A DNA stretch of 64,000 bases from contig JAGRPB010000004.1 in NCBI GenBank assembly GCA_020439945.1, positions 10,307 to 74,306 of the forward strand, in the 5' to 3' direction. The notes below the pieces were generated by a model. The model saw only the letters and a list, made by a program, of their open reading frames with translations, did no database searches and had not been told where the DNA came from. Source of the stretch: Verrucomicrobiia bacterium (lineage in GTDB: Bacteria > Verrucomicrobiota > Verrucomicrobiia > Verrucomicrobiales > DEV007). The translations under genes were made by a program, and so were the position numbers. Below, in pieces: positions 28,082 through 55,106 of this stretch. The stretch's first letter is position 1. Every line of letters begins with the position of its first letter.

Positions 28082-28212
28082 GCCCTCACCCTACCCCGGC
28101 GCGGCCCGGACGCGCAACCGGCAAGCGCCCCGCGAATCCGTCGCAACCCGTTCCGCAATCCACTTGCTTCCAATGTCCGGCCATCCTTTGGTAACGGCAG
28201 CCCCTCCGGTCG

Positions 28213-29430: not shown

Positions 29431-29480
29431 CCAGCGATGTAACCGGCACGCAATCGGCTTCGTCTTTACCCGGCAATGCC

Positions 29481-30899
29481 ATGAGAACCCGCCTCCTTGT
29501 TGCCGCCGGCCTGCTCCTCTCCATCGGTTCATCGCTTTCCGCCGGGGACGAGAAGGGGGAGAATTCGCTCGCCGGCACCTGGCAGGGTGTGATCGCCATC
29601 GGAGGAAAAGAGATTCCGGTCGTCTTCGAGATTTCATCCGACGGCAGAAACGGATGGAAAGGGCATCTCCTGAGCCCCTCCCAGACCGATCAGAAGATTC
29701 CGCTCAGTCTGATCGACTATCACGATCGCGACCTGAACCTCGCCGCCGAGATCATCGGCGGAAGTTTTCGCGGCAAGATGACCTCCAGCGGCCGATCCAT
29801 CCGGGGCGACTGGACCCAGGGAGGATTCACCGTGCCACTCGATCTCGATTTCAGCGAGGAAGCGTTCGCCTACGATCGACCCCAGACGCCGAAACCTCCG
29901 TTTCCCTACGTGACCGAAGAGGTGAGTTTTCCCAACCCACTCGGTAAGAACGAACTCGCCGGCACGCTGAGCTTTCCCGAGAAACCGATTTCCCCACTTC
30001 CCGCCGTCGTTCTCATCACCGGTTCCGGTCCCCAGGATCGTGACGAGACCATCGCCGGACACAAGCCCTTCGCCGTTATCGCCGATTACCTCACCCGGCG
30101 CGGCATCGCGGTGCTGCGCTACGACGATCGCGGCGTCGGGAAATCCACCGGCACCTTCGAGTACGGCACCACGATGGATTTCGCGACCGATGCCTGGGCG
30201 GCGGTCGAATACCTGAAGACCCGTTCCGAGATCGATCCGGAAAAAATCGGCCTGCTCGGTCACAGCGAGGGCGGCCTCATCGCGCCGATCGTCGCGGCGA
30301 AACGCGAGGGCATCGCCTTCCTCGTCCTGCTGGCGGGACCGGGTCTCAGAGGCGATCAGACCCTGCTCACGCAATCCAAGGCCATTGGCGAAGCCGCCGG
30401 GCTGAAACCGGAGATGCTCCAGCTCAGTCAGCAATTTTCGAAGGCGGTTTACGAACTGCTCACCCAACCGAATCCCGATCTCTCCCGGGTGCAGGAACTC
30501 GGGGAAAAATTCGAAGAGGAAGCCAGGAAATTGAACAGCGAAGATCTCGAAGCGCTCAACCAACTCGGTCCGATGCTGGAGCAGCAGATGAAAATGATCG
30601 AGTCGCCCTGGTTTTCCAATTTTCTCGCCATCGATCCGGCCGAGTATCTCCGCCAGGTCACCTGCCCCGTCCTGGCACTGAACGGAAAGAAGGATCTCCA
30701 GGTGATCGCCGACCTGCAACTGCCGGCCATCGAAGCCGCGCTACCGTCCGGCAAGCGAACCGTGCGCGCCCTGCCCGATCTCAATCACCTGTTCCAGAAA
30801 GCCGAAACCGGCCTCCCCGGAGAATACGCCGCCATCGACGAAACGATCTCGCCCACGGTGCTCAAGATCATCGGCGACTGGATCGAGTCCTTGTGGTGA
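29481..30899 (+). CDS. Secreted alpha/beta hydrolase (S9/dienelactone-hydrolase-like)
   Basis: Start at the ATG at 29481 gives signal peptide MRTRLLVAAGLLLSIGSSLSA. Nucleophile elbow LLGHSEGG. Confidence 0.82.
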   Translation: MRTRLLVAAGLLLSIGSSLSAGDEKGENSLAGTWQGVIAIGGKEIPVVFEISSDGRNGWKGHLLSPSQTDQKIPLSLIDYHDRDLNLAAEIIGGSFRGKMTSSGRSIRGDWTQGGFTVPLDLDFSEEAFAYDRPQTPKPPFPYVTEEVSFPNPLGKNELAGTLSFPEKPISPLPAVVLITGSGPQDRDETIAGHKPFAVIADYLTRRGIAVLRYDDRGVGKSTGTFEYGTTMDFATDAWAAVEYLKTRSEIDPEKIGLLGHSEGGLIAPIVAAKREGIAFLVLLAGPGLRGDQTLLTQSKAIGEAAGLKPEMLQLSQQFSKAVYELLTQPNPDLSRVQELGEKFEEEARKLNSEDLEALNQLGPMLEQQMKMIESPWFSNFLAIDPAEYLRQVTCPVLALNGKKDLQVIADLQLPAIEAALPSGKRTVRALPDLNHLFQKAETGLPGEYAAIDETISPTVLKIIGDWIESLW

Positions 30900-32343: not shown

Positions 32344-33393
32344 ATGCCGCACACCACCCCATCCGTGGCGTCGGCCGCCTCTGTGGATGCGGAGAAGAAT
32401 CGTGAGCGATTCGTTTCCGCCTTTCGCTGGATGCTGCTGGCCCGGACCTTTGAAGACAAGATCGCCGCGCTCTACCGGGCGGGGAAAATCGTCGGCGGCG
32501 TCTATCTGGGACGCGGCCAGGAGGCGTTCAGCGCCGCCCTGGGCATGCAGCTCGACCAGAAACACGGCGACGTTTTCGCCGGTCTCATTCGGGATCAGGC
32601 GGGCAGGATGGCCTTCGGCGAACCGCTGCTCGATTCGGCCCGGACCTACCTGGGATCGGCGGAAGGTCCGATGCGCGGACGCGACGGAAATATCCACCGG
32701 GGGCGTCCGCTTCGGGGAATGCCGGCGATGATCAGCCATCTCGGCGCGATGATCTCCGTGGTGAACGGGATGCTGATGGCGAAACGTTTCCGGGGCCGGA
32801 CAGATGTCGTCGGCGGCGCGACCATCGGCGATGGCGGCACCTCCACGGGGGCGTTTCACGAGGGACTGAACCAGGCCGCGGTGGAAAGACTGCCGCTGGT
32901 GGTGGCGGTGGCGGACAACCAGTTTGCCTATTCCACGGCGACCGAACACCAGTATGCCTGTGAGAATCTGGTCGACCGGGCCATCGGCTACGGCGTGCGC
33001 GGTTACCGAATCGATGGGACCGACCTTGAAGCCTGCCTGGAGGCATTTGCCGAAGCGATCGAACGGGCGCGACGCGGCGAGGGTCCCCAGATGGTCGTGG
33101 GAAAGCTGCTGCGCCTGGCGGGACACGGCGAACACGACGACGCTCGCTACATTCCGCCGGACCTTCGAGACAAACCTTTCGGCGGCGACTGCCTGCCGCT
33201 GGCGCGCGAGCGGCTGCTTGACGAGAAGTGGCTCTCGCAGGACGAACTGGACGAACTCGTGACCACGACCCAGGAGTCGGTCGACGAAGCCGTGGCCCGG
33301 GCCCAGAGCGAGCCGGATCCGAATCCGTTCCGTGAATCGTGGCACGCGCTGGCGACCAAGCATCTCGCGGAAGGCACTTTGCCCGCTGACTGA
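32344..33393 (+). CDS. Thiamine-diphosphate-dependent 2-oxoacid dehydrogenase E1 component, alpha subunit
   Basis: TPP motif GDGGTSTGAFHEGLNQAAVERLPLVVAVADN. ATG at 32344, or the in-frame TTG at 32317. Confidence 0.88.
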   Translation: MPHTTPSVASAASVDAEKNRERFVSAFRWMLLARTFEDKIAALYRAGKIVGGVYLGRGQEAFSAALGMQLDQKHGDVFAGLIRDQAGRMAFGEPLLDSARTYLGSAEGPMRGRDGNIHRGRPLRGMPAMISHLGAMISVVNGMLMAKRFRGRTDVVGGATIGDGGTSTGAFHEGLNQAAVERLPLVVAVADNQFAYSTATEHQYACENLVDRAIGYGVRGYRIDGTDLEACLEAFAEAIERARRGEGPQMVVGKLLRLAGHGEHDDARYIPPDLRDKPFGGDCLPLARERLLDEKWLSQDELDELVTTTQESVDEAVARAQSEPDPNPFRESWHALATKHLAEGTLPAD

Positions 33394-33529
33394 TCCCGCG
33401 CCACACTCGGATCCCGACCGAGACCGCCCGGTCTTTCCCCTTGCGTCGGGGGGACGCTTGTTGAAAAGAAGAGCGACACCGTTTTTCCGACGATCCGATT
33501 TCCCGCCTTCTTCTTCGAAAAGACCGCCC

Positions 33530-34495
33530 ATGGCCATCACCTACCTCGACGCCATTCGCGAAGCCCAGTCCCGCGCCCTGGAAGAGGACGAAAATGTCTA
33601 CATCTACGGGCAGGACGTGGCGGCATTCGGCGGTGCTTTCAAAGCGACCAAGGGATTGTCGGAACGATTCCCCGGCCGGGTGATCGATGCGCCGATTTCC
33701 GAGGATGCCATCGTCGGATCGGCGGTGGGCGCGGCGATCGAGGGTATGCGGCCGATCATCGAGATGCAGTTCGCGGACTTCTCCTCGATCGGTTTCAATC
33801 AGATTATCAACCAGAGTGCCACCCAGTTCTGGAGAACCGGGGTTCCGTGTCCCATCACCATTCGCCTGCCCTCCGGCGGCACAGAAGGCAGCGGACCCTT
33901 TCACAGCCAGAGTCTCGAGTCGATCTATGCGCACTACCCCGGTCTGATCGTGATGACGCCGGCAACCGTGGAGGATGCCTACGGGATGCTGCTGGAGGCG
34001 ATCCGCATCGATGATCCGGTGATTTTTTGCGAGCACAAGCTGCTTTACTACCACCTGAAGGCGGACGAATTGCCAAAAACGATCCTGCCGGTCGGCAAAG
34101 CGCGCATCGCCCGCGCCGGACGCCACGCCACCGTGGTGGCCTGTTCGGCGATGGTCCATGAGGCGCTGCGCGCCGCCCGCGAACTGGCCGAGGAAGGTTG
34201 GCAGATCGAGGTGGTGGACCTGCGCTCCGCCAAACCGATCGACACGGATACGATCCTCGCTTCCGTCGCCCGGACGGGCCGACTGCTGGCAGTCAGCGAG
34301 AGTTTTCCCTGGGGCGGCCTGACGGCCGAGGTGGTCTCCCGGGTGTCCGCGGAGGGATTCCACCTGCTCGACGCTCCCCCGCAGCGGCTGAACTCGAAAG
34401 ACACGCCAATCCCCTATCACCCGAACCTGTGGCGGGCTCATCGCCCGACTTGGCAGACCATTGCGGCAGCGACCCGCAACCTGATTCAGCTCTGA
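33530..34495 (+). CDS. 2-oxoacid dehydrogenase E1 component, beta subunit
   Basis: Start at the ATG at 33530 (MAITYLDAIREAQSRALEED). Motifs FGGAFKATKGL and PISEDAIVG. Confidence 0.9.
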   Translation: MAITYLDAIREAQSRALEEDENVYIYGQDVAAFGGAFKATKGLSERFPGRVIDAPISEDAIVGSAVGAAIEGMRPIIEMQFADFSSIGFNQIINQSATQFWRTGVPCPITIRLPSGGTEGSGPFHSQSLESIYAHYPGLIVMTPATVEDAYGMLLEAIRIDDPVIFCEHKLLYYHLKADELPKTILPVGKARIARAGRHATVVACSAMVHEALRAARELAEEGWQIEVVDLRSAKPIDTDTILASVARTGRLLAVSESFPWGGLTAEVVSRVSAEGFHLLDAPPQRLNSKDTPIPYHPNLWRAHRPTWQTIAAATRNLIQL

Positions 34496-35566: not shown

Positions 35567-35642
35567 CATTGCGGCGTTGCGCCCGGACTTCTGTTGGACA
35601 AGTTCACCAGCGCGTTCGATCGATGTGGGAGAAACCTCACCC

Positions 35643-36689
35643 ATGAAACCATTCCTCTTCGCGTCTCTCGCCTCCCTATCGCTCGCCGGAATCGCTCTCG
35701 CTGACGATTCCCCGCTGACCTTCAGCGATCCGAAGCCACAGCGTTACCAACTCGAAGCCCGGGCCAGCGAACTCGATTCGCGGACGAAGGAACATCCCGA
35801 GATCGATTTCATTTTCGAAAAGGACGGCAAGCCGCAGGATGTCGAACACGCGTCCGTGGATACGAGCGTAAAACCGGCCGGCAAATTGGTGATCTGGATG
35901 ATGGGTCACAATGAGAAGCTTTTCGAACGTCTCAACTCCTACGGGCTCCACGCCATCCAGCCTCACTACGCGAATCGATGGTTTTCCAAAGTCTGCACCG
36001 AAACTCCGGTCAGCGAAACCTGTCGGGGCAACGTGCGTCTCGAAGCGGCCACGGGAGAGGATTACAGCGAAGACGTCAACATTCCCCAGCCCGACGGCAT
36101 GATGGAGCGGGCGTTCCAATTCGTGAAGTGGCTTTCGAAAGAAAACCCCGCCGGACGCTGGGACTACTTCATCAATGAGAGCGGCGACGGACTGCGCTGG
36201 GACCGGGTGATCATGTCCGGGAGTTCGCACGGCTCGACCACCTCGGCGCGTTTCGCCAAGCATCAGCGGGTCGATCGCGTGGTCATGCTCTGCGGACCTC
36301 GCGACCAGTATCAGAACTGGCAGGCGCTCCCCTCCGCCACGCCGGCGAACCGCTATTTCGGATTCAGCCACGTGCTGGACGGCGGCTGGACCGGCGACCA
36401 CTACTGCCGATCGTGGGAACTGCTGGGGCTTCACGAGTTCGGCCCCATCGTGAATGTCGATGATGCCAAGCCTCCCTACGAAAACACCCGGCGCCTCATC
36501 ACGGCCGCCGATGTCGGGAACGACGACAAGCGGGCCCACTCCTCCGTGACACCCGGCGGGGCGTCACCCAAGAACACGGAAGGAGAATTCCTTTTTGAAG
36601 ACGTCTGGCGCTATCTCTACACCCATCCCGTCGACGAAGTGGGCACGCCCGTGCCGATGGATGATGATTGCGTGAAAGATCAGCGTTGA
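35643..36689 (+). CDS. Secreted hypothetical protein, possible alpha/beta-hydrolase-like esterase
   Basis: Start at the ATG at 35643 gives signal peptide MKPFLFASLASLSLAGIALA. There is a GxSxG-like motif MSGSSHGS. The function call is weak. Confidence 0.6.
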   Translation: MKPFLFASLASLSLAGIALADDSPLTFSDPKPQRYQLEARASELDSRTKEHPEIDFIFEKDGKPQDVEHASVDTSVKPAGKLVIWMMGHNEKLFERLNSYGLHAIQPHYANRWFSKVCTETPVSETCRGNVRLEAATGEDYSEDVNIPQPDGMMERAFQFVKWLSKENPAGRWDYFINESGDGLRWDRVIMSGSSHGSTTSARFAKHQRVDRVVMLCGPRDQYQNWQALPSATPANRYFGFSHVLDGGWTGDHYCRSWELLGLHEFGPIVNVDDAKPPYENTRRLITAADVGNDDKRAHSSVTPGGASPKNTEGEFLFEDVWRYLYTHPVDEVGTPVPMDDDCVKDQR

Positions 36690-36786
36690 GGAATTCCCGC
36701 GCGCGCGCCCTACAAAGGCAGGGTCGAATTGTAATCGAAACCGGAGGCTCCCGTCGGAAAGTGAAAGCATCCATTTCAAGACAATC

Positions 36787-37236
36787 ATGAACGAAACTTC
36801 TACCTCTATCCAACCCCACGCGGGAGGTGCGCCGGCCGGGAATCCGCCCGCCAGTTCGACTCACAGCGTGGCGATCGGCTACATCCTTTGGATTTTCGGT
36901 TTCACCGGCGCCCATCGCTTTTACTACGGCAAACCGATCTCGGGCGCGATCTGGCTTTTCACCGGCGGTCTCCTCGGGATCGGCTGGTTGATTGACCTTT
37001 TCCTGATCCCCGGCATGGACCGCAAGGCGGACCTCCGCTACGCGACCGGCCGCTATGATTACTCGACCCCCTGGTTGCTGCAAACCTTCGCCGGTCCGCT
37101 CGGGCTTCACCGCATGTACCTCGGCAAATGGGTCAGCGGATTCGTCTACCTGTTTACGGGCGGCCTGCTCCTGGTTGGCTGGATCTACGATTTCTGCACC
37201 CTGAACGGCCAAGTCGACGAACAGAATCGCGCCTGA
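36787..37236 (+). CDS. TM2 domain-containing membrane protein (two TM2 units)
   Basis: Duplicated motif: WIFGFTGAHRFYYGK...GIGWLIDLF and GPLGLHRMYLGK...VGWIYDF. Confidence 0.85.
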   Translation: MNETSTSIQPHAGGAPAGNPPASSTHSVAIGYILWIFGFTGAHRFYYGKPISGAIWLFTGGLLGIGWLIDLFLIPGMDRKADLRYATGRYDYSTPWLLQTFAGPLGLHRMYLGKWVSGFVYLFTGGLLLVGWIYDFCTLNGQVDEQNRA

Positions 37237-37240
37237 TCGA

Positions 37241-38269
37241 TCACTCCAATTCGACGATCTGGAAACTCTCAACCGTCACGACGCTACCCACCGCGGGTCC
37301 GATTCCCACGGGGCTGTCGAGTGAGTCAAAGGCACCGTCCATGGTGGCCCTTTGCTTGCCGTCGACGCTGACTTCGATCTGGTTCTTCCGAACATCGATC
37401 ACGAAATCGTGCATCTCGTTCGCAGAAACGCTGCCGGCGCCCGGCACTCCGATGGCCCGATAGGTAGCGGGATCGCGCAGCCGCAACTCTTCGACATTCA
37501 TCTCCCAATTGAAGACGGCCAGGATTCCTTTCCCATAGTAGAAACGGATGTTGGTGGAGTCCGTCTTGACGCGGGCTCTGATTCGAAACGGAGGTGAGAA
37601 ATCGCGCCGAGATTCGACCCAGCAGGTTTTCGGTCCCTTGAGTTCCAAGCCATCCGGCACCGTCTCCACCTCGCACCCCTTCATGGATTCGACGCTGGCT
37701 CGACTTTTGAATTCCCAGAGAACTCGAGCCATTTCCGCGGTCGGCCGACTATCGGGATGGGCGATGGACAACTTGCTGATTTCCGCCTCCAATGCGTCAA
37801 CCCGCTTCTTCACTTCCAGGGCCTCGTCAATCCTGCCCTCCTTGGTAAGTGCTTCCATCCTCGGCCGCAACGCCTCGCTGTAGGACTCCAGGAGTTTCGC
37901 TTTGCTTTTGTCGACTTCCCCGGAAAGGGTCGGCCACTTCTCATCGTAAATCTCTCTCAAGCGACGCAATTCGGGAAATCCGTCGTAGTCTCGCTCCCCT
38001 TTCTCCCGAAACAATTCGCGCTCCTTTTTCACCAGCAAAGCCATTTCGAGTCGACCTCGCGACTGAGCCAGCTCTTGAAGTTGTTTCAATTCCTGCTCGT
38101 AGCGCGCCTCAAAATCTCGGACCGGTTGCTCGGCCTCGCGCATCGCCTTTGCGAATTTTTCCTCCATGGCGACCAGCTCTGTCAGGGAGGAGGAGGCGTC
38201 GTCCTGCGCGACGGTGGCCGCGATGGCGGAAAGCCAGAGAAAGCCGAGGAAGAGAAACGTTGGTCTCAT
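37241..38269 (-). CDS. Secreted protein with an N-terminal coiled coil and a C-terminal beta-sandwich (lectin/glucanase-like) domain, hypothetical
   Basis: ATG at 38269 gives signal MRPTFLFLGFLWLSAIAA (GTG at 38281 is the alternative). The N-terminal half is heptad-rich and the C-terminal half beta-rich. Confidence 0.7.
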   Translation of the reverse strand: MRPTFLFLGFLWLSAIAATVAQDDASSSLTELVAMEEKFAKAMREAEQPVRDFEARYEQELKQLQELAQSRGRLEMALLVKKERELFREKGERDYDGFPELRRLREIYDEKWPTLSGEVDKSKAKLLESYSEALRPRMEALTKEGRIDEALEVKKRVDALEAEISKLSIAHPDSRPTAEMARVLWEFKSRASVESMKGCEVETVPDGLELKGPKTCWVESRRDFSPPFRIRARVKTDSTNIRFYYGKGILAVFNWEMNVEELRLRDPATYRAIGVPGAGSVSANEMHDFVIDVRKNQIEVSVDGKQRATMDGAFDSLDSPVGIGPAVGSVVTVESFQIVELE

Positions 38270-38483
38270 GCGAAACAGCACCGGAAAAGTTCTTTAGTCA
38301 ACGAATGCAAGAATAGTATGCAGCCATCGCCCCCTTCAAGGCCTGTTTCCCGGAGGGGCGATTCTGCGATTTCATCCCATGAAAGGGCTGCGGGAAATTT
38401 GCGATTGGCGAAGGATTCCCGCTTGGAAAAGTCGAATCCCTGTGCCAATTTCCCGCTCGCTCGACTTCCGGGCGATTGGTCAA

Positions 38484-38560
<77 letters not shown>

Positions 38561-38564
38561 CTCT

Positions 38565-38635
38565 GGGTCTACACCAAAGGGGTCTACACCGGGTCTACAC
38601 CAAAGTTTGGGGGGTCTACAGGGTCTACACCAAAG
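38565..38635. repeat. Five direct copies of GGGTCTACA(CC), three of them extended to GGGTCTACACCAAAG, starting 4 nt after the tRNA
   Basis: Copies at 38565-38579, 38580-38590, 38591-38605, 38612-38620 and 38621-38635. A T7 run follows at about 38651. Confidence 0.9.
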
Positions 38636-38675
38636 ATTGGGGGAAGGACCTTTTTTTGTTCATCTTCGGTTTTGG

Positions 38676-38744
38676 TCAGCCGCATTGAGCGATGACCCTG
38701 AGTCGATAGTTCTGGAAGTTTCGGAAGCCGTAGGCACGGCGCTG
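38676..38744 (-). pseudogene. Remnant of a transposase 3' end (ISL3-like C-terminal motif)
   Basis: Minus-strand translation gives QRRAYGFRNFQNYRLRVIAQCG-stop. From memory this resembles the conserved ISL3-family C-terminus (AYGFRNFxNFRLR). Nothing recognisable lies upstream and there is no start codon. Confidence 0.35.
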
Positions 38745-38994
38745 CGGCGGGCTTAAATCAAATTTCGCGAAATGGATTTGCGAAGGGGCGCGGTAACATT
38801 TCATCGCGCAACCGGATTGCCCACCAGCATGATTCTGGGCGTCAGATTCCACCAATTACCAACGCCTCGACCCGATTTTCGCCCCACCGGTTTCATGGAG
38901 ATCGGACGGATCGGACAGCAAAAGAGCGCTAATCAATCAGCTTGATATTGATACCGCGTCTCATTATCAGATTGGCACCGAACTACTCTACCTC

Positions 38995-39930
38995 ATGAAA
39001 AGATCGAATCCATCACTCTCCCTCGTCGGCCCACGCCGAATCATCGCAGTTGCCGGAATCACGATGTCGCTCGTATTGACGGCGGCGCAATCGCCCGATC
39101 TCCACGCCGGTGAAGAAATCTTCAGCCATGTCAAGACGGCGGAAACCCTGCCCGAAGGAGCCTGGGAAGCCTACCAGACCCTCACTTCCCGCTTCGACAA
39201 GGGACAAGGATCTTACAACGCCTGGAACCTCATGCTAGAACTGGAATACGGAGTCACCGACAAACTCTCGATCAGCGGGGGTCTACAGGCGCAGTCTCTG
39301 GACACCAGTGGTCTGATCGTGGATGGCTACATCCCCGAGGAAATCGACCGGACTGGTTTCTCCGGCGCTGAGATCGGGTTGAAATACAATTTCCTCCAGC
39401 CCGCCAAGGCAAAAATCGGCCTCACTTACTATACGGGTTTCGATTTCACCTGGGTGGATCCCCATTCCGGCCAGGACAAGTATACACTCTCCTACGAGAA
39501 CCAGCTGCTCCTTCAGAAATACATGATGGAAGGCCAATTGATCTGGGCAACCAATCTTGGTGTTGAAACCACCTACGCCGACCGCGCGTCTATTCCCGGT
39601 CTTTCACCCGACATCGAGTGGCCCACCGATCCCGAAGTCGAAATCGAACTCCAGGCCGGAACCGCGCTCAGCTATCGCATCGCCCCGAAGCTTTTCGTTA
39701 ACATGGAAACGCTCTTTGAAACTGAGTTCGAAACCGAAGTCGGCCAGGAGCGCTGGTCCGTCTTTGTCGGTCCCAGCCTCCACTACGCGACCGAAAAATG
39801 GTGGGCGACCATCGGCTGGCTCCCGCAAGTCGGCGGCGGCGGCGAACGCTACCCCGGACAGACCAGCGGGCTGCACCTGATCGAGAAAACAGCGCACGAA
39901 ATTCGCTTCCGTGCCGGCCTGAATTTCTGA
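38995..39930 (+). CDS. Outer-membrane beta-barrel protein (MetA-pathway/transporter-like), hypothetical
   Basis: Signal peptide, alternating beta-strand pattern, and a C-terminus ending RFRAGLNF (terminal aromatic residue typical of outer-membrane proteins). Confidence 0.75.
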   Translation: MKRSNPSLSLVGPRRIIAVAGITMSLVLTAAQSPDLHAGEEIFSHVKTAETLPEGAWEAYQTLTSRFDKGQGSYNAWNLMLELEYGVTDKLSISGGLQAQSLDTSGLIVDGYIPEEIDRTGFSGAEIGLKYNFLQPAKAKIGLTYYTGFDFTWVDPHSGQDKYTLSYENQLLLQKYMMEGQLIWATNLGVETTYADRASIPGLSPDIEWPTDPEVEIELQAGTALSYRIAPKLFVNMETLFETEFETEVGQERWSVFVGPSLHYATEKWWATIGWLPQVGGGGERYPGQTSGLHLIEKTAHEIRFRAGLNF

Positions 39931-39941
39931 TCTCTCCTGCC

Positions 39942-40493
39942 ATGCGAACTCAATCGTATCTTGCGCATGCGCTCGTTCCGGTGACTGCAATCGTGGCACC
40001 GGTGACGATCGTTCAGACCGCATTCTGTCGCGAATACCTCTCGGTTTCGCAGGCCCAATCCGCTCTGTTTCCCGGAGCCCAATTCACCCAGCAATCGATC
40101 AAACTCGGCAGCGATCAGCTGAAAGAGATTAAGCAATTGTCCGGCGTGCGCCAGCGCGACAAGTCGCCCCAGGTCTGGCGCGCGGACCGTGGCGGTCTTG
40201 CCGGCTGGTTCATCGTGGATGACGTGATCGGCAAACACGAATACATCACCTACGGCGCCGCCATCTCTCCCCAGGGAAAGGTGATCGGTGTGGAGGTGCT
40301 CGTTTACCGCGAAACCCACGGTGATGAAATCCTCCAGGAATCGTGGCGGCGAAACTTCAAAGGCAAAGACCTCGGCGACAAGTTTGCCCTCGATCAGGAC
40401 ATTCCGAACATCAGTGGAGCCACGCTCTCCTGCCGGAATGTGACCGATGGAGTGAAGCGCCTGCTCGCCCTGCACAAGGTCGCGCTACGATGA
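39942..40493 (+). CDS. Periplasmic FMN-binding domain protein (flavinylation substrate)
   Basis: Start at the ATG at 39942, 11 nt after the outer-membrane gene. FMN_bind pattern GKVIGVEVLVYRETHGD, and flavinylation motif ISGATLS. Confidence 0.82.
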   Translation: MRTQSYLAHALVPVTAIVAPVTIVQTAFCREYLSVSQAQSALFPGAQFTQQSIKLGSDQLKEIKQLSGVRQRDKSPQVWRADRGGLAGWFIVDDVIGKHEYITYGAAISPQGKVIGVEVLVYRETHGDEILQESWRRNFKGKDLGDKFALDQDIPNISGATLSCRNVTDGVKRLLALHKVALR

Positions 40494-41323
40494 ATCCGTC
40501 GATTCGCTGCCGCCCCTTTTTGGGCACCTTTGTCGAGATCGGCGTGACTTCGGACAACGAAGTGACTCGGCGCGCCGTCGATGATGCCTTCGACGCGATC
40601 GGTGACGTGCATCGCCTGCTGAGCTTTCACGATCCCGAAAGCGATCTGAGTCGGCTTAATGCCAGCAACGGCGAGTGGGTGCGTCTGCACCCACTCAGCC
40701 TGCGCGTTCTCCGTCTCGCCAAGGGACTGACCGAACAAAGTGGCGGCCTCTTCAACTGCACAGTCGGAGCCCACATCGTGGAGCTTGGTGTCTTGCCAAA
40801 CCACCTCAGACACCGATCCCATCGAGCAGCGAGTGGTCTCGCCGATGATCTGGTTCTAAAGCAAAATGCCGCCCATCTCGCCAGTCCGATTCTGATCACT
40901 CTCGACGGTATCGCCAAGGGCTACGCGGTCGATCGTGCCGTCGCCGCCCTGCTCCGGGGAGGCGTTGCATCCGGTTGGGTGAATGCGGGTGGAGACATGC
41001 GCGCTTTTGGAGACATCGCCCTGCCCGTGCACCAGCGCAGTTTGACGGGCGAGCTACTTCCTCTCGGTGGATTGAGTGGAGCGGCGATTGCGACTTCGCG
41101 CGTTGCTCCAGAGAGAGATTCCCGCTTTCCCGGATGCATCGTCAACACGGACGGTGGTCAATCCTGTCACGGCGTTTGGACCGTGCTCGCCCGCCGAGCC
41201 TGGCGAGCCGACGCACTGACCAAGGTCGCCGCCAATGCGCCCAACTCGAAACGTGAAAGCTGGATCGAGCAGCTGGGTGGACGATTGATTGTCCCCGAGA
41301 CGGGTGTAGAAGTCGCGGCATGA
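40490..41323 (+). CDS. apbE: FAD:protein FMN transferase
   Basis: Start at the ATG at 40490 (ATGA overlap with the upstream stop). Motifs FHDPESDLSRLN and TLDGIAKGYAVDRAV. Confidence 0.88.
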   Translation: MNPSIRCRPFLGTFVEIGVTSDNEVTRRAVDDAFDAIGDVHRLLSFHDPESDLSRLNASNGEWVRLHPLSLRVLRLAKGLTEQSGGLFNCTVGAHIVELGVLPNHLRHRSHRAASGLADDLVLKQNAAHLASPILITLDGIAKGYAVDRAVAALLRGGVASGWVNAGGDMRAFGDIALPVHQRSLTGELLPLGGLSGAAIATSRVAPERDSRFPGCIVNTDGGQSCHGVWTVLARRAWRADALTKVAANAPNSKRESWIEQLGGRLIVPETGVEVAA

Positions 41324-41754
41324 AAGGCTATCCGAAGCATTTCAAAACCGTCCTGCTTTCCACCTTCGCCGCGCTGGTTGCCAGCGGGCTGACGCTGGCT
41401 CCGGGCCTGCTGATGTTTCGTCTCGATCTCGATGTACCCGATTGGGCGAGTCCCTTCGAGCGAACCTCCGTCGCTGCGATTCACGTCGGAGCGGCTCTTC
41501 TGACCTGCTTCTTTGTGGGTTCGCTCTGGTCGATCCACATGCGAACGGGCTGGAAGCGACGGAAAAACCATCGCAGCGGCACCCTGCTCTGCACCGCGTT
41601 TCTCGTCCTCGCAGCCTCTGGTCTTGGCGGCCTCTACTTTGGAGATGAGTTGCTCGCGCGCGGCAACGCCATCGTTCATCTTTCGGCGGGAATCATTTTG
41701 CCGTCGATCCTCATCTTTCACAGCCTGGCTTGGCGGCGGCGACGAAATCAGTGA
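41320..41754 (+). CDS. Four-TM membrane protein with intramembrane histidines (possible b-type cytochrome)
   Basis: ATGA overlap with the apbE stop. Four helices carry His in AAIHVGAALL, WSIHMRTGW, AIVHLSAGI and LIFHSLAW. Confidence 0.7.
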   Translation: MKGYPKHFKTVLLSTFAALVASGLTLAPGLLMFRLDLDVPDWASPFERTSVAAIHVGAALLTCFFVGSLWSIHMRTGWKRRKNHRSGTLLCTAFLVLAASGLGGLYFGDELLARGNAIVHLSAGIILPSILIFHSLAWRRRRNQ

Positions 41755-42770
41755 CTGGCGCTCGCGGGTTCCCGGGAAAGATCGATCGCCAGTCGGACCG
41801 CGCTGTACAGACTGTCGGGGCGGGCTTTTCCCGTCCACGCGATGTCGAAAGCGGTGCCGTGATCGACGCTGGTTCGAATGACGGGCAGCCCGAGCGTCGT
41901 ATTGACCGCCGAATCGAAGGCGAGTGCCTTCACCGGGATGTGCCCCTGATCGTGATACATGCACACGAAGGCGTCGTTGGCTTCCAGCGATGATTTGATG
42001 AAAGCGGTATCGGGAGGCACCGGACCAACGGCGTTGATTCCCTGTTCCCTGGCTGCCTCGATGGCGGGAATGATAGCCCGCTCCTCTTCCCCGTCTCCGA
42101 ACAAGCCGTGCTCCCCGGCGTGAGGATTCAATCCGCACACCACGATGCGGGGAGAGCGTTTCCGGATGCGGGTCAACGCGTCGGCCGTCAGCTCGATCAC
42201 CTGGAGAATCCGGTCCCGCGTCAACAGGGCGGGCACCTCGGCATAGCCCACATGCACGGTTACGAAGGTGCAGGTGATGATCTCGGAATACTGCATCATG
42301 CAGAAATCATCCGTGTTCGTCCGACTCGCGAAGATCTCGGTATGCCCGGGAAAATTGATCCCCGCCATCCGCATCGCTTCCTTATTCAGCGGCAAGGTGG
42401 TCACCGCATCCACCCGCCCGGATTGCACCGCTTCGATGGAATGCTCCACGTAGGTGTAGGCGGCCTTCCCGGCGGCGGCGCTGAGTTCTCCCGGCGAAAA
42501 CGCGCCCGGTTCGATCGCTCCGATATCGTAGATCGCGGGGCCGGTGATCCCTCCCACATCGGCCGCTTGATTCACGATTTGTGTCGCTTCGTTCCAGGCG
42601 ATGCCCGTCGCCTCACCGGCCGCCCGCATCACCGCCACATCGCCGAACACGATCGGACGGCAATGCGCCAGCAACGACGATTCTGATAAAAGGCGCACCC
42701 CCAATTCGGGTCCGACTCCGGCGGGGTCGCCCATGGTGACGGCAATTCTTGGGAGGGAATCCGAAGGCAT
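41748..42770 (-). CDS. pdxA: 4-hydroxythreonine-4-phosphate dehydrogenase family (PdxA)
   Basis: Motifs MGDPAGVGPEL, NFPGHTE and VDHGTAFDIAW. Confidence 0.88.
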   Translation of the reverse strand: MPSDSLPRIAVTMGDPAGVGPELGVRLLSESSLLAHCRPIVFGDVAVMRAAGEATGIAWNEATQIVNQAADVGGITGPAIYDIGAIEPGAFSPGELSAAAGKAAYTYVEHSIEAVQSGRVDAVTTLPLNKEAMRMAGINFPGHTEIFASRTNTDDFCMMQYSEIITCTFVTVHVGYAEVPALLTRDRILQVIELTADALTRIRKRSPRIVVCGLNPHAGEHGLFGDGEEERAIIPAIEAAREQGINAVGPVPPDTAFIKSSLEANDAFVCMYHDQGHIPVKALAFDSAVNTTLGLPVIRTSVDHGTAFDIAWTGKARPDSLYSAVRLAIDLSREPASASH

Positions 42771-42826
42771 TTGCCCTCAGCTTAGACGCTTCGCGGTCCC
42801 AGGCAACCGGGTTGAAATGCCGAATC

Positions 42827-44602
42827 TCACCGCGATGGCATCCAGGCGCGCCAGCCGCCGTGGGAGGTGATCTCCTCGGCAGATACGGTCGCCCATTCCT
42901 CACAGACGAATCCACTCACTTCACGGCTGTCGGCGAGCGTCACCTTCCCAATTCCCAGCGGCGATCCGATGCCATCCACGAACGTCCCGAAGCTGCTCGC
43001 CGGAACCGACCAGATCTCCACCTCGATCGCGGCACCTCTTGAATCATCGCGAACCAATCCCGGACGCGGCGGGAAATCTTCTGTGGCCGGCAGTGCGAAC
43101 ATCCGATAACACGGCGCGGTTTGAGTGGCTTCCACCAGCCAACCGCCACGAGTCGTCAGTTGATGATTCAGTGGCAATCCGCTGAGATGAGCGCCACAGA
43201 CCACCACTTCGATTCGAGGTTCGTCAGAGTCGATCCGGAGAGTCGGGAACGCATCGCCTTTCGCGTGAAATTTCGCCGCCAACTCGAGCAGGAACGCGTC
43301 GCAAAACGCCGGACCAAACAGGGTTATGCCCCACGGCATACCCTGTTGACTCAGGAACCCCGCCGGCACCGCGGTCGCCGCGTAGTCGAGCAGGTTCATG
43401 AAATTGGTGTAGTAACCGAGATTTGAATTCAAACGAATCGGATCGGCTTCGACTTCGGCAACGGTGTAGGGCTTGCCAAAAGTCGGTGTGAGTATGGCAT
43501 CGACGAAATCCCAAACGTCGTCGGCCCGGCGTTTGAGTTCGCGGAGCCGATACTCGGCCCGGAATGCGGCCACCGCCGTGAGGGTGCGGCCACCTTCGAT
43601 GATTTTTCGCGTCACCGGAAAGACCGCATCGGCCTGGGCATCGAGGAATGGCTCGATCGCCGCCAAGCGCTCCGCCACCCAAGGACCTTCGTAGAGCAGG
43701 AGGGCGGCTTCGAGGAAGGGAGCGAAATCGATTTCAGTGACCTCGCATCCCAGATCGCGAAATCGCTGAATGGATTCCGAAAAGAGCGCCCGGCAATCTT
43801 CGTCGCCGAAAAACTCAAGCTGATCAGGTTTGGGAATTCCAATCTTTGCTTTTGAAACCTGCGGTCCCGGCAATGGCGAACTGATTACGCTTCGGCTATA
43901 CGGATCCGCCGCGTCGAAGCCGGCCATCACATTCAGGACCTCGGCGGTTTCGCTAGTGGTGGCGGCGAAAACTGTGACGCAGTCGAGGGAGCGGCAGGCG
44001 GGAACCACACCGGAACAGCTCACCAGTCCCTTGGTCGGTTTGAGCCCAACCAAATCATTCAGCGATGCCGGGACGCGGCCTGAGCCAGCGGTGTCGGTTC
44101 CCAGCGAAAAGCTCACCAGCCCAGCGCTCACCGCAACCGCCGAACCGGAACTTGATCCACCGGGAATGTAGTCGCCATTGTACGGATTTGTCGGAAATCC
44201 GAAGGGCGAACGCACGCCGACCAGACCGGTGGCGAACTGATCGAGATTCGTTTTCCCGATCGGAATCGCTCCGGCTTCGATCAACTTCCCGACAGCAAAC
44301 GCGGAGCGCTCGGGCACGTAGGCGTATTCGGGGCATCCCGCTGTCGTCGGCACTCCGGCGAGGTCGATGTTGTCTTTGATGGCGAACGGCACGCCCAAAA
44401 GCGGAAGCGAATCAGGATCGAGCGCCTCCATACGTTTCACGTATGTCATCACCTGCTCGACCGACAGGCGTTCGATCCAGATTTTTGGATCTGCGCCATC
44501 ACAAGCTTCCAGGACACGTCCGATCAGTTCTTCCGGCGTGGTCTTTCCCGATCGATAAGCCTCCCGTAACACCGAGAGTGAAAGGTCATCCTTGAGCAAC
44601 AT
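42827..44602 (-). CDS. atzF: Allophanate hydrolase (amidase signature domain plus C-terminal AH domain)
   Basis: 591 aa with amidase signature GGSSSGSAVAVSAGLVSFSLGTDTAGSGRVPA, plus a ~120-aa C-terminal domain. Lies 10 nt downstream of the carboxylase. Confidence 0.9.
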   Translation of the reverse strand: MLLKDDLSLSVLREAYRSGKTTPEELIGRVLEACDGADPKIWIERLSVEQVMTYVKRMEALDPDSLPLLGVPFAIKDNIDLAGVPTTAGCPEYAYVPERSAFAVGKLIEAGAIPIGKTNLDQFATGLVGVRSPFGFPTNPYNGDYIPGGSSSGSAVAVSAGLVSFSLGTDTAGSGRVPASLNDLVGLKPTKGLVSCSGVVPACRSLDCVTVFAATTSETAEVLNVMAGFDAADPYSRSVISSPLPGPQVSKAKIGIPKPDQLEFFGDEDCRALFSESIQRFRDLGCEVTEIDFAPFLEAALLLYEGPWVAERLAAIEPFLDAQADAVFPVTRKIIEGGRTLTAVAAFRAEYRLRELKRRADDVWDFVDAILTPTFGKPYTVAEVEADPIRLNSNLGYYTNFMNLLDYAATAVPAGFLSQQGMPWGITLFGPAFCDAFLLELAAKFHAKGDAFPTLRIDSDEPRIEVVVCGAHLSGLPLNHQLTTRGGWLVEATQTAPCYRMFALPATEDFPPRPGLVRDDSRGAAIEVEIWSVPASSFGTFVDGIGSPLGIGKVTLADSREVSGFVCEEWATVSAEEITSHGGWRAWMPSR

Positions 44603-44612
44603 TGCGACAGAT

Positions 44613-47600
44613 TCAGGAGGGTTCGAGATAGAGCAAAGCCTGCCCCGGGCGTACGGCGGCGCTTTCGGTCACAGTAACTTTCCAGACCGTTCCGGCTCGC
44701 GGGGCGCAGATGGTGAACTCGGTTTTCATCGCCTCGAGAATGGCCACCTTTTCCCCCGCTTCCACGACGTCGCCTTCGGTCTTGAACAGTTTCCAGACGT
44801 TGGCGGCGAGGAAGCTTTCGACAGGCTCCACATGATCCGGGATCGCTTCGTCGCCATCGCCGGCGGCACTTTCGGCGAGTTCCGGGGCCCCCGACATGGC
44901 GACGCCGGCGGCGGCCCAGCGCTCGCGTTCTTCGTCGAAGGCGGCCTGCTGCCGTTGCTTGAAGGACTGGATCGACTCGGAGTTGTCGGCGAGGAATTTC
45001 GCGTAGTCCCCCATCGAGAAGGTGCCCGTCTCGACTTTCGGATTGAAACGTCCCTGGATGAAATCGCGCCGCAGTTGTTTCAGTTCATCGGCGCTGACGG
45101 GATACCAACGAATCTGATCGAAGAAGCGGAGCAACCACGGCTTGCCTTCGCGAAAAGACACCGTTTGCCGATACCGATTCCACATCTGGATGGTGCGGCC
45201 GACAAACTGGTAACCGCCGGGCCCTTCCATCCCGTAGATGCAGAGATAGGCGCCACCGATGCCGACGGCGTTCTCGGGAGTCCAAGTCCGCGCGGGATTG
45301 TATTTCGTGGTGACGAGCCGATGACGCGGATCGATAGGAGTTGCCACCGGTGCGCCCAGATAGACATCGCCCAGACCGAGAACCAGATAGCTGGCGCCAT
45401 AGACGATCTCTTTGACCGCTTCGATGGAGTCGAGGCCGTTGATGCGGCGGATGAACTCGATATTACTGGGACACCACGGCGCATCCGGACGAACCGATTG
45501 CGTGTATTTCGCGATGGCTTCCCGGGTTGAGGGATCGTCCCAGGAAAGAGGCAAGTGAACGATCCGCGAAGGCACCTCCAGCTCTTCCAGAGGGGGCAGC
45601 GCGACTTCGAACGCTTCGATGTGGGCGATGAGATCAGTCTGCGAGATCACGCGGCTGTCGTAGTGAACCTGCAGCGAACGAATTCCCGGCGTGAGATCGA
45701 TGATGCCATCGAGGTTCTCCTCTTTCAGAGCCTGATAGATTACATGAACGCGCAGCCGGAGATCGAGGTCGAGCTTGAGCGGACCGCATTCAACCAGCAG
45801 ATAGCGGTCGCTCGACTGCCGATAGACGACGCGATACTCCCCTTCCCCGTGCTCATGAATGATGGCGGATTCGGGAATCGCGGCGATTGGAGAATCCTGT
45901 TCGTCGCCCGAGAAATCCGCCCCTGCCCATGAGCCGAGTTTCGACTCCCGGTCCGTGTCGAGACGAGTTGCTTCGTCCAGCGATACCGGCAAAAACCGAA
46001 CCGTATCTCCGGCGCGCAACTGCCCCATCTTCCACAGGTCGGCATGGATAATGGTCGCCGGACAGACGAATCCGCCCAGGCTCGGTCCGTCGGGGCCGAG
46101 GATGACGGGCATGTCGCCGGTGAAATCGACTGTTCCAATCCCGTAGGCATTGTCGTGAATGTTGGAGGGATGAAGTCCCGCTTCTCCCCCATCCGAGCGG
46201 GCCCACTCCGGTTTCGGACCGATCAACCGAATGCCGGTCCGGTCCGAGTTGTAGTGAATTTCCCAATCTGTTTGGAAGAACGTTTCGATATCTGCGCCGG
46301 TGAAAAAGTCGGGCGCTCCGTGAGGACCATAGAGCACGCGGATTCTCCACTCGTGGCCATAGGTCGGAGGACTCTTGATCTCACTCGATTCTGAGATGCC
46401 TTCGGAAGCACCGAAGTGAATCACGTCTCCCGGTCGCAGCGCTCGACCGCCGTGACCGCCAAACTGACCGAGAATGAAGGTCGAGCGACTGCCGAGATAC
46501 TCCGGCACGCTCAATCCTCCCGCGACGGCGAGATACGAACGCATACCCTCAGAACTGGCACGCCCGACCACAAGCGTCTGGCCCCGTTTCACGGCGGTTG
46601 CTTTCCAATACGGCACCGCTTCGCCATCGAGCGTGGCATCCATCGGCGCTCCAGTCAGGGCGATGACGGTATCGCGGTTGAAGCGTAGCGTCGGGCCAGC
46701 GAGCGTGATTTCGAATCCGGCGGCGTCCTCGGCATTACCGACGAGACGATTGGCAAGCCGAAACGCCAGGGAATCCATCGGACCCGAGGGCGGCACGCCG
46801 ACGTCCCAGTAACCCAGTCGGGCCGGGTAGTCCTGCACGGTGGTCTGGGCGCCGGGCGCGATGACATCGATGCTGTGGGGCCGGTAATCGAAATCCGACA
46901 GCCAGCGTGTGGTCATCCTGCCGTCGCGGAAAACAGGCGCATCGACGACCTGACGCAGGTATTCGAGATTGGTTTCGATACCGGACACTTCGGTCTCGCC
47001 CAACATCCCGAGCAGCCCTTCGATCGCTTTTTCCCTGGTATCGCCGTTCGCCATCACCTTGGCGAGCAAGGGATCGTAGAAGCCGGTCACCTCGGTCCCG
47101 GCGCTGATCCAGTGGTCGATTCGTCCTGTCTCAGGAAAGTCCACATGCGTCAGAAGTCCCGGCGAAGGCTGGAAATTCTTGTTTCCGTCTTCCGCATAGA
47201 GTCGGACCTCGATGGCGTGGCCTTGGCTGGCAAGCGTCGATGCCTCCGGAAGCGTGAACTCCCCCGCGGCGCAGGTGATCATCCACTCCACCAAGTCAAC
47301 GCCGAAGACCATCTCGGTGACACCGTGCTCAACTTGGAGCCGGGTGTTGACCTCGAGAAAGTAGAACGCTTCGGCATCGACATCATAGAGAAATTCGACC
47401 GTTCCCGCCGAGCGATAGTTGACCGCCTCCGCCAAAGACACAGCTGCCTCGTGGAGTGCTTGACGGGTATCCTCGGAAATCCCCGGGGCCGGTGTTTCCT
47501 CGACCACTTTCTGGTTTCTTCGTTGCGCGGAACAATCGCGTTCACCGAGCGCGAGTACACCGCCTTTGCCGTCGCCGAAAATCTGGACCTCGATGTGCCT

Positions 47601-48215
47601 GGCACGAGCGATGAATTTTTCCAGGAACACGCCGCCCTCGCCGAAATTGGCGGCGCTCAATCGGGTGACCGATTCGAAGGCGTCGGCGAGTTCCGCCGCA
47701 TTTTGGCACACCTGGATACCGATCCCGCCACCGCCAGCCGAGCTTTTCAGCATGACCGGATACCCAATCACCTCGGCCTTCTCTGTGGCCTCTTCGAGCG
47801 TGGCCAACAACGAGGTACCTCGCAGCAACGGCACGTCGCTTTTTTCGGCCAGATCGCGGGCCTCATGCTTGAGACCAAAGGCTCGGATTTGATCCGCGGT
47901 CGGACCGATGAATGCCACTCCGGCGGCTTCACATCGACCGGCGAAAGTCGTGCTTTCACTGAGGAGACCATAACCCGGATGAACCGCCTCGGCTCCGGAC
48001 TCGGCCAGGACTTCCATGAGCCGATTCTGGTTCAGGTAGCTGTCTTTGACCGGCGCCGGTCCCAGGCAATAGGCTTCGTCCGCCAACGCCACATGCGGCG
48101 ATTCGCGATCCGCCTCCGAGTATACCGCCACCGAAGCGACGCCCATCTTGTGGAGCGTGGCCAGGATGCGGCAGGCGATTTCTCCGCGGTTGGCGACGAG
48201 AACTTTGGTAAACAT
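44613..48215 (-). CDS. Biotin-dependent urea carboxylase family enzyme; gene context suggests guanidine carboxylase
   Basis: 1200 aa. N-terminal biotin carboxylase ([16 protein letters not shown]), central KipA/KipI-type domains, and a C-terminal biotinyl motif EAMKTE. Confidence 0.92.
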
Positions 48216-54855: not shown

Positions 54856-55106
54856 GATTTTGTGAAGTAAAGCTTGAAAGATGAAGACTGTTTGTTGACG
54901 AGCGCGGCACGATTTTCGCCCGCGATCGAAAGAGAAAGGGAGAGATCGCTCGCGCTCAGCAGCCCAGAAAGACGAAGCTGCAGAGAGTGATGCCCAAGGC
55001 GCGCAATGCCTCCCGGCCATCACTGGCCGTCGCCTTGCGTGGAGATCCCTTTTTCATCTTCATTTCCAGAAATTCACGAAACCTTCCATCGCCCAATCAC
55101 GCGCCG

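Follow-up and report, generated by a model that had tools for sequence, protein, structure and literature searches.

What is the function of the four adjacent genes at positions 38995-41754 in a stretch of 64,000 nucleotides (nt) from a Verrucomicrobiia bacterium (Verrucomicrobiales, DEV007; assembly GCA_020439945.1, contig JAGRPB010000004.1; the whole stretch is hereafter called the window)? The genes encode, in this order, an outer-membrane barrel, a flavin mononucleotide (FMN)-binding protein, a protein of the ApbE family, and a small membrane protein with four transmembrane (TM) helices. A preliminary description of this DNA had suggested a flavin-based extracytosolic electron-transfer module to which no function could be assigned. 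We found that the cassette is real, widely conserved, and previously undescribed, and the general statement that it is a haem-and-flavin module for electron transfer across the membrane is one that we make with high confidence; a role in iron acquisition is the function that we somewhat favor.

Open reading frames (ORFs) were called in the window, the gene junctions were read base by base, and the encoded proteins were scanned against Pfam and NCBIfam. The features on which the following argument depends are listed here (aa, amino acids).

38950-38968, plus strand: Fur-type box GATACCGCGTCTCATTATC, 14/19 positions matching GATAATGATAATCATTATC, 45 nt upstream of the barrel ATG
38995-39930, plus strand: DUF6662 barrel gene, 311 aa (Pfam PF20367)
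39942-40493, plus strand: FMN_bind protein gene, 183 aa (Pfam PF04205)
40410-40430, plus strand: flavinylation motif I-S-G-A-T-L-S, residues 157-163 of the FMN_bind protein, with Thr161 as the predicted FMN site
40490-41323, plus strand: ApbE-family gene, 277 aa (Pfam PF02424)
41320-41754, plus strand: four-helix membrane protein gene, 144 aa (predicted di-haem cytochrome b)
41482-41484, 41536-41538, 41677-41679, and 41719-41721, plus strand: codons of the invariant histidines H55, H73, H120, and H134, respectively, of the four-helix protein

The co-directional arrangement with an 11-nt gap and two ATGA overlaps, as given in the preliminary description, was borne out by direct reading of the bases. 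The barrel gene ends with TGA (39928-39930), which is followed by the gap (tctctcctgcc) and the ATG of the FMN_bind gene at 39942; the stop codon of the FMN_bind gene overlaps the start codon of the ApbE gene at 40490-40493, and that of the ApbE gene overlaps the start codon of the four-helix gene at 41320-41323. Expression of the second to fourth genes probably depends on translational coupling. Note that a Shine-Dalgarno-like purine run was absent from the gap (39931-39941) before the FMN_bind start. At the other end of the cassette, the four-helix gene and pdxA, which is convergent with it (41748-42770, minus strand; Pfam PdxA, E 2.5e-103), share 7 nt at their 3' ends (41748-41754), and thus there is no space for an intrinsic terminator. 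Scans for sigma-70 promoters and terminators gave nothing useful.

Conservation was examined on the contigs encoding homologues of the 144-aa protein or DUF6662 proteins. A word-indexed search returned 17 homologues of the 144-aa protein, and an exhaustive profile search with the four-helix family returned 1234 representatives (50% identity) at E<=1e-3. More than 20 loci (L001-L009, L011-L015, L017-L021, and L023-L026 in our numbering) have DUF6662, FMN_bind, ApbE, and four-helix genes in this order, all on a single strand, with about 35-60% identity to the window proteins for all four genes. The hosts belong to the Gamma-, Beta-, and Alphaproteobacteria and the Bdellovibrionota; they include Shewanella, Microbulbifer variabilis, Bowmanella, Aliikangiella, Caulobacter, Methylotenera, Roseateles rivi, and Bdellovibrio, as well as an alphaproteobacterial metagenome-assembled genome (MAG), several Bdellovibrionota, and metagenome contigs. 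Because the genes bordering the cassette are different in every lineage, we regard the cassette as a self-contained module. The synteny survey that had been suggested as a check thus returned the same four-gene order with unrelated flanks and, as judged from these sequence comparisons, the four translationally coupled genes are a conserved unit across several bacterial phyla. The window sequence itself was present only in DNA metagenome runs, from activated sludge and wastewater.

The first gene product had been described as an outer-membrane barrel ending in F, and this agrees with its full-length match to DUF6662 (PF20367; 272.7 bits against a cut-off of 27, E 6e-81) and its C-terminus (...GLNF). 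With the 311-aa start at 38995, a signal peptide covers approximately residues 1-39 (...DLHA|GEE). The public gene call starts at Met24 (39064; 288 aa), and the signal peptide is lost in this call; the leaders of barrel homologues end in A-x-A followed by DENLFGY. The AlphaFold2 model (predicted local distance difference test (pLDDT) value, 89) has 12 strands, and the best Foldseek matches were FapF (5o65, E 3e-9) and the COG4313 channel Pput2725 (4rl8, E 3e-7), with TM-scores of 0.55-0.65 (0.55-0.63 for 4rl8) and sequence identity of 7-12%. A DENLFGYVKGAETLP-like N-terminal segment before strand 1 is highly conserved across DUF6662, and in Pput2725 the segment at this position occludes the lumen (PMC4493636). 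As modelled, the barrel resembles the N-terminally occluded 12-stranded channels of the FapF/COG4313 type. No match of the window barrel to PF13557 (Phenol_MetA_deg) was detected at E<=1, and a precomputed PF13557 match was present in only a few barrel homologues. Among 34 homologues, the mature barrel has an isoelectric point of 4.25-4.84, zero cysteines, and 16 invariant glutamates, which include E82/84, E126, E191, E214/216/218, E238/242/244/246, and E302. Because many of them alternate along the strands (E82/84, E214/216/218, E242/244/246), the glutamate ladders probably face the lumen; this placement was deduced from how hydrophobic residues alternate in the sequence and was not read from coordinates. 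We also considered whether the barrel has a second flavinylation site and rejected this, as its conserved motif, S-G-x-E, has an invariant Glu in place of Ser/Thr.

The second gene product matches FMN_bind (PF04205) at 38.9 bits (cut-off, 22) and carries ISGATLS at residues 157-163, so that the flavinylation motif in an FMN_bind context was confirmed; matches to the RnfG/NqrC-type models of NCBIfam were below the cut-offs (rnfG, 35 against 102 bits). Residues N156, I157, G159, A160, T161, L162, and S163 are invariant in the 16 cassette copies aligned, and the residue before the invariant G-A-T161 is S, T, or G (N-I-x-G-A-T-L-S). For comparison, the motif for ApbE substrates is given as [S/T]GA[S/T] in the survey by Meheust et al. 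(PMC8238504). The window protein has a Sec signal peptide of approximately 29 residues, and in all 16 copies a short Sec-type leader is followed by (D/E)YL...QAQ; the leader ends in A-x-A in most copies, and the window has a variant (...TAFC|REYLSVSQAQ) which is not A-x-A. From the Sec leader and the match to the [S/T]GA[S/T] motif, we predict that the FMN_bind protein is a soluble protein of the periplasm with FMN bound covalently to Thr161.

The AlphaFold2 model of the fourth gene product (pLDDT, 87) has helices at residues 7-33, 45-76, 84-106, and 110-143. Judging from the Lys/Arg distribution in the sequence, the topology is N-in/C-in, with the N terminus, the loop at 73-87, and the C terminus in the cytoplasm. 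The preliminary description had placed one His in each TM helix, and this did not hold: the window protein has histidines at 7, 55, 73, 84, 120, and 134, and those invariant in 17 close and 41 diverse homologues are H55 and H73 in TM2 and H120 and H134 in TM4, with no conserved His in TM1 or TM3 of the same homologues. The four invariant histidines hold down to about 20-30% identity. H55 and H120 are located near the periplasmic ends, and H73 and H134 near the cytoplasmic ends, of TM2 and TM4; by arithmetic, the spacings of 18 (TM2) and 14 (TM4) residues put each pair on one helix face. The four histidines are thus predicted, from spacing and not from coordinates, to sandwich one haem near each face of the membrane. 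Besides the histidines, the most conserved parts of the protein (N-terminal K-G-Y-P, and W-S-I-H-M-R) face the cytoplasm. A flavinylation site in this protein was also considered and rejected, as the residues after the conserved [ST]-G at 86-87 vary.

With regard to the relatives of this protein, a hidden Markov model search against DUF4405-like or cytochrome b561-like families had been proposed, and the outcome was divided: distant members of the family match both families, and the window protein matches neither. The window protein has no significant Pfam match (the best was a spurious Bax1-I match of 20 bits), Foldseek of its model against the PDB returned generic helix bundles (all E>0.1), and profile searches of the family against PDB sequences found nothing. 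Among 41 members of the family, however, 13 match PF01292 (cytochrome b561) and eight match DUF4405 at E<=0.01; the PF01292 cut-off was exceeded by three of the ten distant members scanned, and the family profile reaches, at E ~1e-16, proteins that score on PF01292. On these matches, the four-helix family appears to be tied by sequence to prokaryotic cytochrome b561 and DUF4405.

The third gene product is an ApbE-family protein, as had been stated; it carries TLDGIAKGYAVD and matches PF02424 at 106.2 bits (cut-off, 25.6) over residues 11-262, with profile position 1 at residue 11. Its best solved relative is TM1553 (1vrm; E 2.4e-12). The motifs DGIAKG, AGGDxRxFG, and ADALTKVA are invariant in the 16 cassette copies; the flavin adenine dinucleotide (FAD)/Mg roles of DGIAKG, AGGD, and ADAL-T were taken from family knowledge and from a review (PMC12052999). 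A conserved His is absent at the canonical HH(I/L)DP stretch, which holds the general-base His (His257 in Vibrio cholerae ApbE), and no invariant His occurs anywhere in the alignment of 16 sequences; in the alignment with TM1553, a 4-residue gap is located opposite 'ryhh'. Note that the H257G mutant of V. cholerae ApbE keeps a reduced activity (PMC12052999 for both).

The ApbE protein had been assumed to act in the periplasm, and this assumption had to be given up. In all 16 cassette copies only 4-20 residues of the ORF precede the first strand of the fold, without a signal peptide, a lipobox, or a hydrophobic in-frame upstream extension, and no hydrophobic leader before the first-strand motif was present in the 120 closest ApbE relatives (258-321 aa). 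The enzyme, leaderless, and the FMN_bind protein, Sec-exported, are therefore predicted to be in different compartments. A hidden upstream start or a frameshift fusion to the FMN_bind gene was rejected (in L003, the frame is open only one codon upstream), as was a twin-arginine translocation signal, for which the leader was found in neither the FMN_bind nor the ApbE protein. The N-terminus of this ApbE clade (window 40490-40540, and all cassette loci) has a conserved dibasic (K/R)R(M/L)(R/K)P-LLGTFVEIG sequence; it resembles a twin-arginine pair, but its reading as such a signal was likewise rejected, as the first strand, and not a hydrophobic signal region, follows directly, at the start of the Pfam match. 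No ApbE fusion that would fix the topology was found among the 120 closest ApbE relatives and the 150 best matches of the four-helix protein.

The upstream region of the barrel gene was then compared among loci with regard to regulation. The window and 16 loci (237 kb, both strands) were scanned for Fur-type sites with a threshold of at least 14/19 matches to the consensus. Eleven matches were obtained in total, and six, distributed over four loci with the window among these, were located within 150 nt 5' of the barrel ATG, although these 150-nt regions comprised 1.1% of the sequence scanned. The box in the window was the only match at this threshold in 64 kb (shuffle p = 0.003 for the 150-nt upstream region). 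Fur-like sites 63-84 nt upstream of the barrel ATG were found in L001 (16/19), the Shewanella locus L023 (15/19), L026 (two, 14/19), and L025 (13/19). In gammaproteobacterial loci, a site AATGATAATCATTTGCATT is located about 80 nt upstream of the ATG, followed in several of them by a TAGAAT -10-like hexamer. From these sites, the operon is probably repressed by Fur.

A second indication came from the gene context. In L010 (Burkholderiaceae MAG OZ245872.1, 15-6429), the barrel is absent, and one strand encodes a TonB-dependent receptor, a PepSY_TM-like protein, DUF4198 and ChaN-type proteins, and then the FMN_bind protein, a leaderless ApbE, and the four-helix protein; apart from this ApbE, no ApbE-family gene was seen among those cluster genes that were examined. 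By its gene content, L010 looks like a natural hybrid of a PepSY-type iron system and the cassette. The cluster type matches iron-uptake clusters described by Meheust et al. (PMC8238504), and an operon of this type in Caulobacter (PepSY/DUF2271/DUF4198/ApbE) was induced 12- to 51-fold by iron limitation and fur deletion (PMC3751524). Moreover, in four related metagenome contigs (L003-L006) a ferritin gene (153 aa, PF00210) is located about 130 nt 3' of the four-helix gene on the same strand. The Fur-type boxes at the promoter and the iron-uptake context of L010 therefore point to iron as regards function, and the earlier statement that no function can be assigned was improved on to this extent.

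Taking these data together, we lean toward the view that the cassette is a self-contained operon for reductive iron acquisition by a periplasmic flavin/haem reductase, induced under iron starvation. In this mechanism, iron starvation would relieve the repression by Fur and derepress the operon; the four-helix protein, with two b haems, would receive electrons from quinol or from a donor in the cytoplasm and move them across the inner membrane; the periplasmic FMN_bind protein, with FMN on Thr161, would take electrons from the four-helix cytochrome and would reduce Fe(III) or a small ferric chelate entering via the acidic DUF6662 channel; and the resulting Fe(II) would be imported by a transporter encoded elsewhere. 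The ApbE-family gene would supply the covalent FMN. Gene content and order, the motifs, the predicted topology, and the promoter sites come directly from the analysis, and from them we infer which cofactors are bound, in which direction and from which donor electrons flow, what the substrate is, and how the operon is regulated. As for the electron-transfer module of the preliminary description, the domain assignments, the strict synteny, and the links to b561 and DUF4405 sustain it, and the His layout and the compartment of ApbE had to be revised.

Several points weigh against reductive iron acquisition. For ubiquinol, reducing a low-potential FMN would be an uphill reaction, and because of this the electron donor is uncertain. 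The Fur match in the window is modest (14/19), the consensus may not be that of the host, and a Fur-like site is absent in several loci (Bdellovibrio-type L009 and L012, and Roseateles L017). No ferrous or ferric transporter was conserved beside the cassette in the loci inspected. The lack of a significant Pfam cytochrome match for the four-helix protein of the window and the generic Foldseek result count here as well, and so does the maturation step, in which a predicted cytoplasmic ApbE lacking the canonical catalytic His would have to act on a Sec-exported substrate. Finally, hydrophobic molecules, and not ions, are the presumed cargo of barrels of the COG4313 type (PMC4493636).

The last point leads to the same electron-transfer architecture with a substrate other than iron. 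The barrel would then admit a hydrophobic or amphipathic oxidant or reductant (a quinone, free flavin, or an organic peroxide-type compound), and the flavoprotein would either reduce this substrate or oxidise it and feed the quinone pool. The closest structural relatives of the barrel, FapF and Pput2725, together with the implication of COG4313 members in hydrophobic-molecule uptake (PMC4493636), speak for such a substrate, as do the absence of a conserved iron transporter beside the cassette and of Fur-like sites in some loci. However, the enrichment of Fur-type boxes exactly at the promoter, the position of L010 in a TonB receptor-PepSY-DUF4198-ChaN locus, the ferritin gene adjoining the cassette in L003-L006, and the barrel lining, which would consist mostly of invariant glutamates and not of hydrophobic residues, all disagree with it, and we consider both variants of this alternative unlikely. 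A periplasmic oxidative-stress device, like E. coli b561 CybB or MsrPQ repair, in which Fur control would be explained by the connection of iron with oxidative stress, is very improbable in our view. CybB is a superoxide:quinone oxidoreductase, and the sequence link of the four-helix family to prokaryotic cytochrome b561 (PF01292) would suit this role, but the two-plus-two histidines on two helices differ from the FdnI/CybB type, in which the His ligands are spread over three helices. MsrQ-like cytochromes do occur in apbE clusters according to the survey (PMC8238504), but the cassette has no MsrP-like, thioredoxin-like, or other repair enzyme, and the dedicated outer-membrane channel and the iron-uptake context of L010 fit uptake better.

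The part played by the ApbE-family protein has to be weighed separately. It may be a dedicated transferase that acts before export or by another route; alternatively, a housekeeping periplasmic ApbE may carry out the flavinylation and the cassette ApbE may have another role, or it may be a cytoplasmic partner of the cytochrome. L010 speaks for the dedicated transferase, as it shows this ApbE as the only ApbE-family gene among the genes examined, which at the same time counts against the partner. That the leaderless protein works in the cytoplasm, either in flavinylation of the unfolded FMN_bind protein before Sec export or as a stoichiometric FAD-holding subunit feeding the four-helix cytochrome, appears rather improbable, and a little less probable still is that it is not, or not only, a maturation enzyme and is instead a stoichiometric cytoplasmic partner of the cytochrome, e.g., an FAD-holding module docked on the invariant cytoplasmic GYP/WSIHMR face, with a housekeeping periplasmic ApbE flavinylating the FMN_bind protein. 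The partner would account for the absence of a signal peptide in 16/16 copies and of a leader in the 120 closest relatives, for the loss of the canonical catalytic His region with retention of the FAD/Mg motifs, for the translational coupling of the ApbE and four-helix genes via the ATGA overlap, and for the conservation of the cytoplasmic face of the latter protein. On the other hand, no ApbE-fold redox subunit is known according to the review, the cytoplasmic ApbE of Klebsiella is a true transferase, and the V. cholerae H257G protein is still active (PMC12052999); nor was a fusion of ApbE and the four-helix protein seen among the matches listed. If the FAD-holding subunit were true, there would be a complete chain from the cytoplasm through the inner membrane and the periplasm to the outer membrane, with the ApbE fold serving redox and not maturation; either cytoplasmic mode would be unprecedented.

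The surroundings of the cassette were examined in view of the statement that it lies just after a tRNA-linked integration scar. A tRNA-Pro(CGG) gene is located at 38484-38560, and directly 3' of it (38565-38640) GGGTCTACACC recurs about five times, often with AAAG after it, and forms a short irregular array, which may be what had been called the scar; no repeat matching this array was found 3' of the cassette. The idea that the cassette is bordered by an att-type repeat of the tRNA end was rejected (none in 37800-43000), no evident integrase-like gene was present in the ORF list for 36000-45000, and the GC content of the cassette (0.55-0.62) matches that of its neighbours without a clear break. 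The integration scar is thus not supported. An Rfam scan of 38300-39100 detected only the tRNA, and no FMN or other riboswitch. The neighbours are ordinary chromosomal genes, namely pdxA, an allophanate hydrolase gene, a long ORF adjoining it, and a TM2-domain protein gene. At 42827-48215 (minus strand), the allophanate hydrolase (Amidase + AH_C) adjoins an ORF of 1200 aa, which from its appearance, and not from a domain scan, is probably a biotin-dependent urea carboxylase; the two would form a pair for urea degradation that has no relation to the cassette. Upstream of the tRNA, a double TM2-domain protein (PF05154) is encoded at 36787-37236, and the alpha subunit of a Rieske ring-hydroxylating oxygenase is encoded further downstream at 53467-55023. 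No Pfam family was found for the large neighbouring ORFs at 35577-36689, 37241-38281, 32732-34441, and 28078-29637.

How does the cassette compare with known systems? RnfG and NqrC are membrane-anchored proteins. The cassette flavoprotein shares with them the FMN_bind fold family and the S-G-A-T-L-S/T site, but it scores far below the cut-offs and has an apparent cleavable signal peptide, and the cassette contains no other Rnf or Nqr subunits. As with Pput2725 (4rl8) and FapF (5o65), the barrel has 12 strands, about 270 mature residues, and a conserved segment before strand 1; unlike these channels, DUF6662 would have a glutamate-rich lining, and its partner genes encode redox proteins and are not catabolic or amyloid genes. 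No mention of 'DUF6662' was found in a full-text literature search, and the cassette gives a first functional context to this family, which has hundreds of members, including those in Shewanella, Alteromonadales, Caulobacter, and Bdellovibrio. Likewise, the unnamed four-helix family, with more than 1,200 representatives at 50% identity, gains a functional context. The lack of a signal peptide in the cassette ApbE is shared with the cytoplasmic ApbE of Klebsiella pneumoniae; however, the substrate of the latter is a cytoplasmic soluble fumarate reductase (PMC12052999), whereas the sole candidate substrate in the cassette is Sec-exported. A leaderless ApbE paired with such a substrate raises the question of where and how flavinylation happens, and this is the one feature of the cassette that is possibly more than a variation on known clusters.

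Among ApbE-linked systems, the cassette falls within the operational definition of a flavinylation-associated cluster as given in the survey (Meheust 2021, PMC8238504). The carrier classes named there are NapH-like, MsrQ-like, PepSY-like, DsbD, and Nqr/Rnf-like; no MsrQ-like (PF01794), PepSY-like (PF03929/PF16357), or DsbD (PF02683) match was present among the matches of the window four-helix protein at E<=1. In the two flavinylation surveys, b561, PF01292, and a barrel partner are not mentioned. With the PepSY-like/DUF2271/DUF4198/ApbE clusters described by Meheust et al. (PMC8238504), the cassette would have in common an operon in which apbE is combined with a small di-haem cytochrome of the inner membrane and a protein that is secreted and flavinylated. 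Examples of these clusters are the FoxB-type cytochrome and the Caulobacter operon CC_3059-3063, which is Fur-repressed and induced by iron starvation (PMC3751524); some also have an outer-membrane importer, a TonB receptor, and in L010 such a cluster is merged with the cassette. The cassette differs in that its four-helix cytochrome has no PepSY_TM match, its flavoprotein is FMN_bind and not DUF2271, its outer-membrane partner is the 12-stranded DUF6662 barrel, and its ApbE is leaderless. The two-helix, four-His arrangement has precedents in apbE clusters in the PepSY-like, MsrQ-like, and DUF4405 cytochromes, and haem b binding was shown for one DUF4405 protein (Huang et al. 2024, PMC11334425). 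As in the DUF4405-ApbE clusters, a membrane protein with four strongly conserved histidines adjoins apbE; the tie to DUF4405 is a weak match in 8/41 family members and none in the window protein. DUF4405 proteins are modelled with six TM helices, and their partners, in Firmicutes/Proteobacteria, are Flavodoxin_4 and a flavin transporter (PMC11334425), whereas in the cassette a protein of four helices occurs together with an FMN_bind protein and an outer-membrane barrel. If the function proposed here is true, the cassette provides a reductive route of iron uptake that is independent of TonB and under the control of Fur; it also adds a candidate class of membrane cytochromes, and the first dedicated small outer-membrane channel, to the ApbE-linked systems catalogued for extracytosolic electron transfer.

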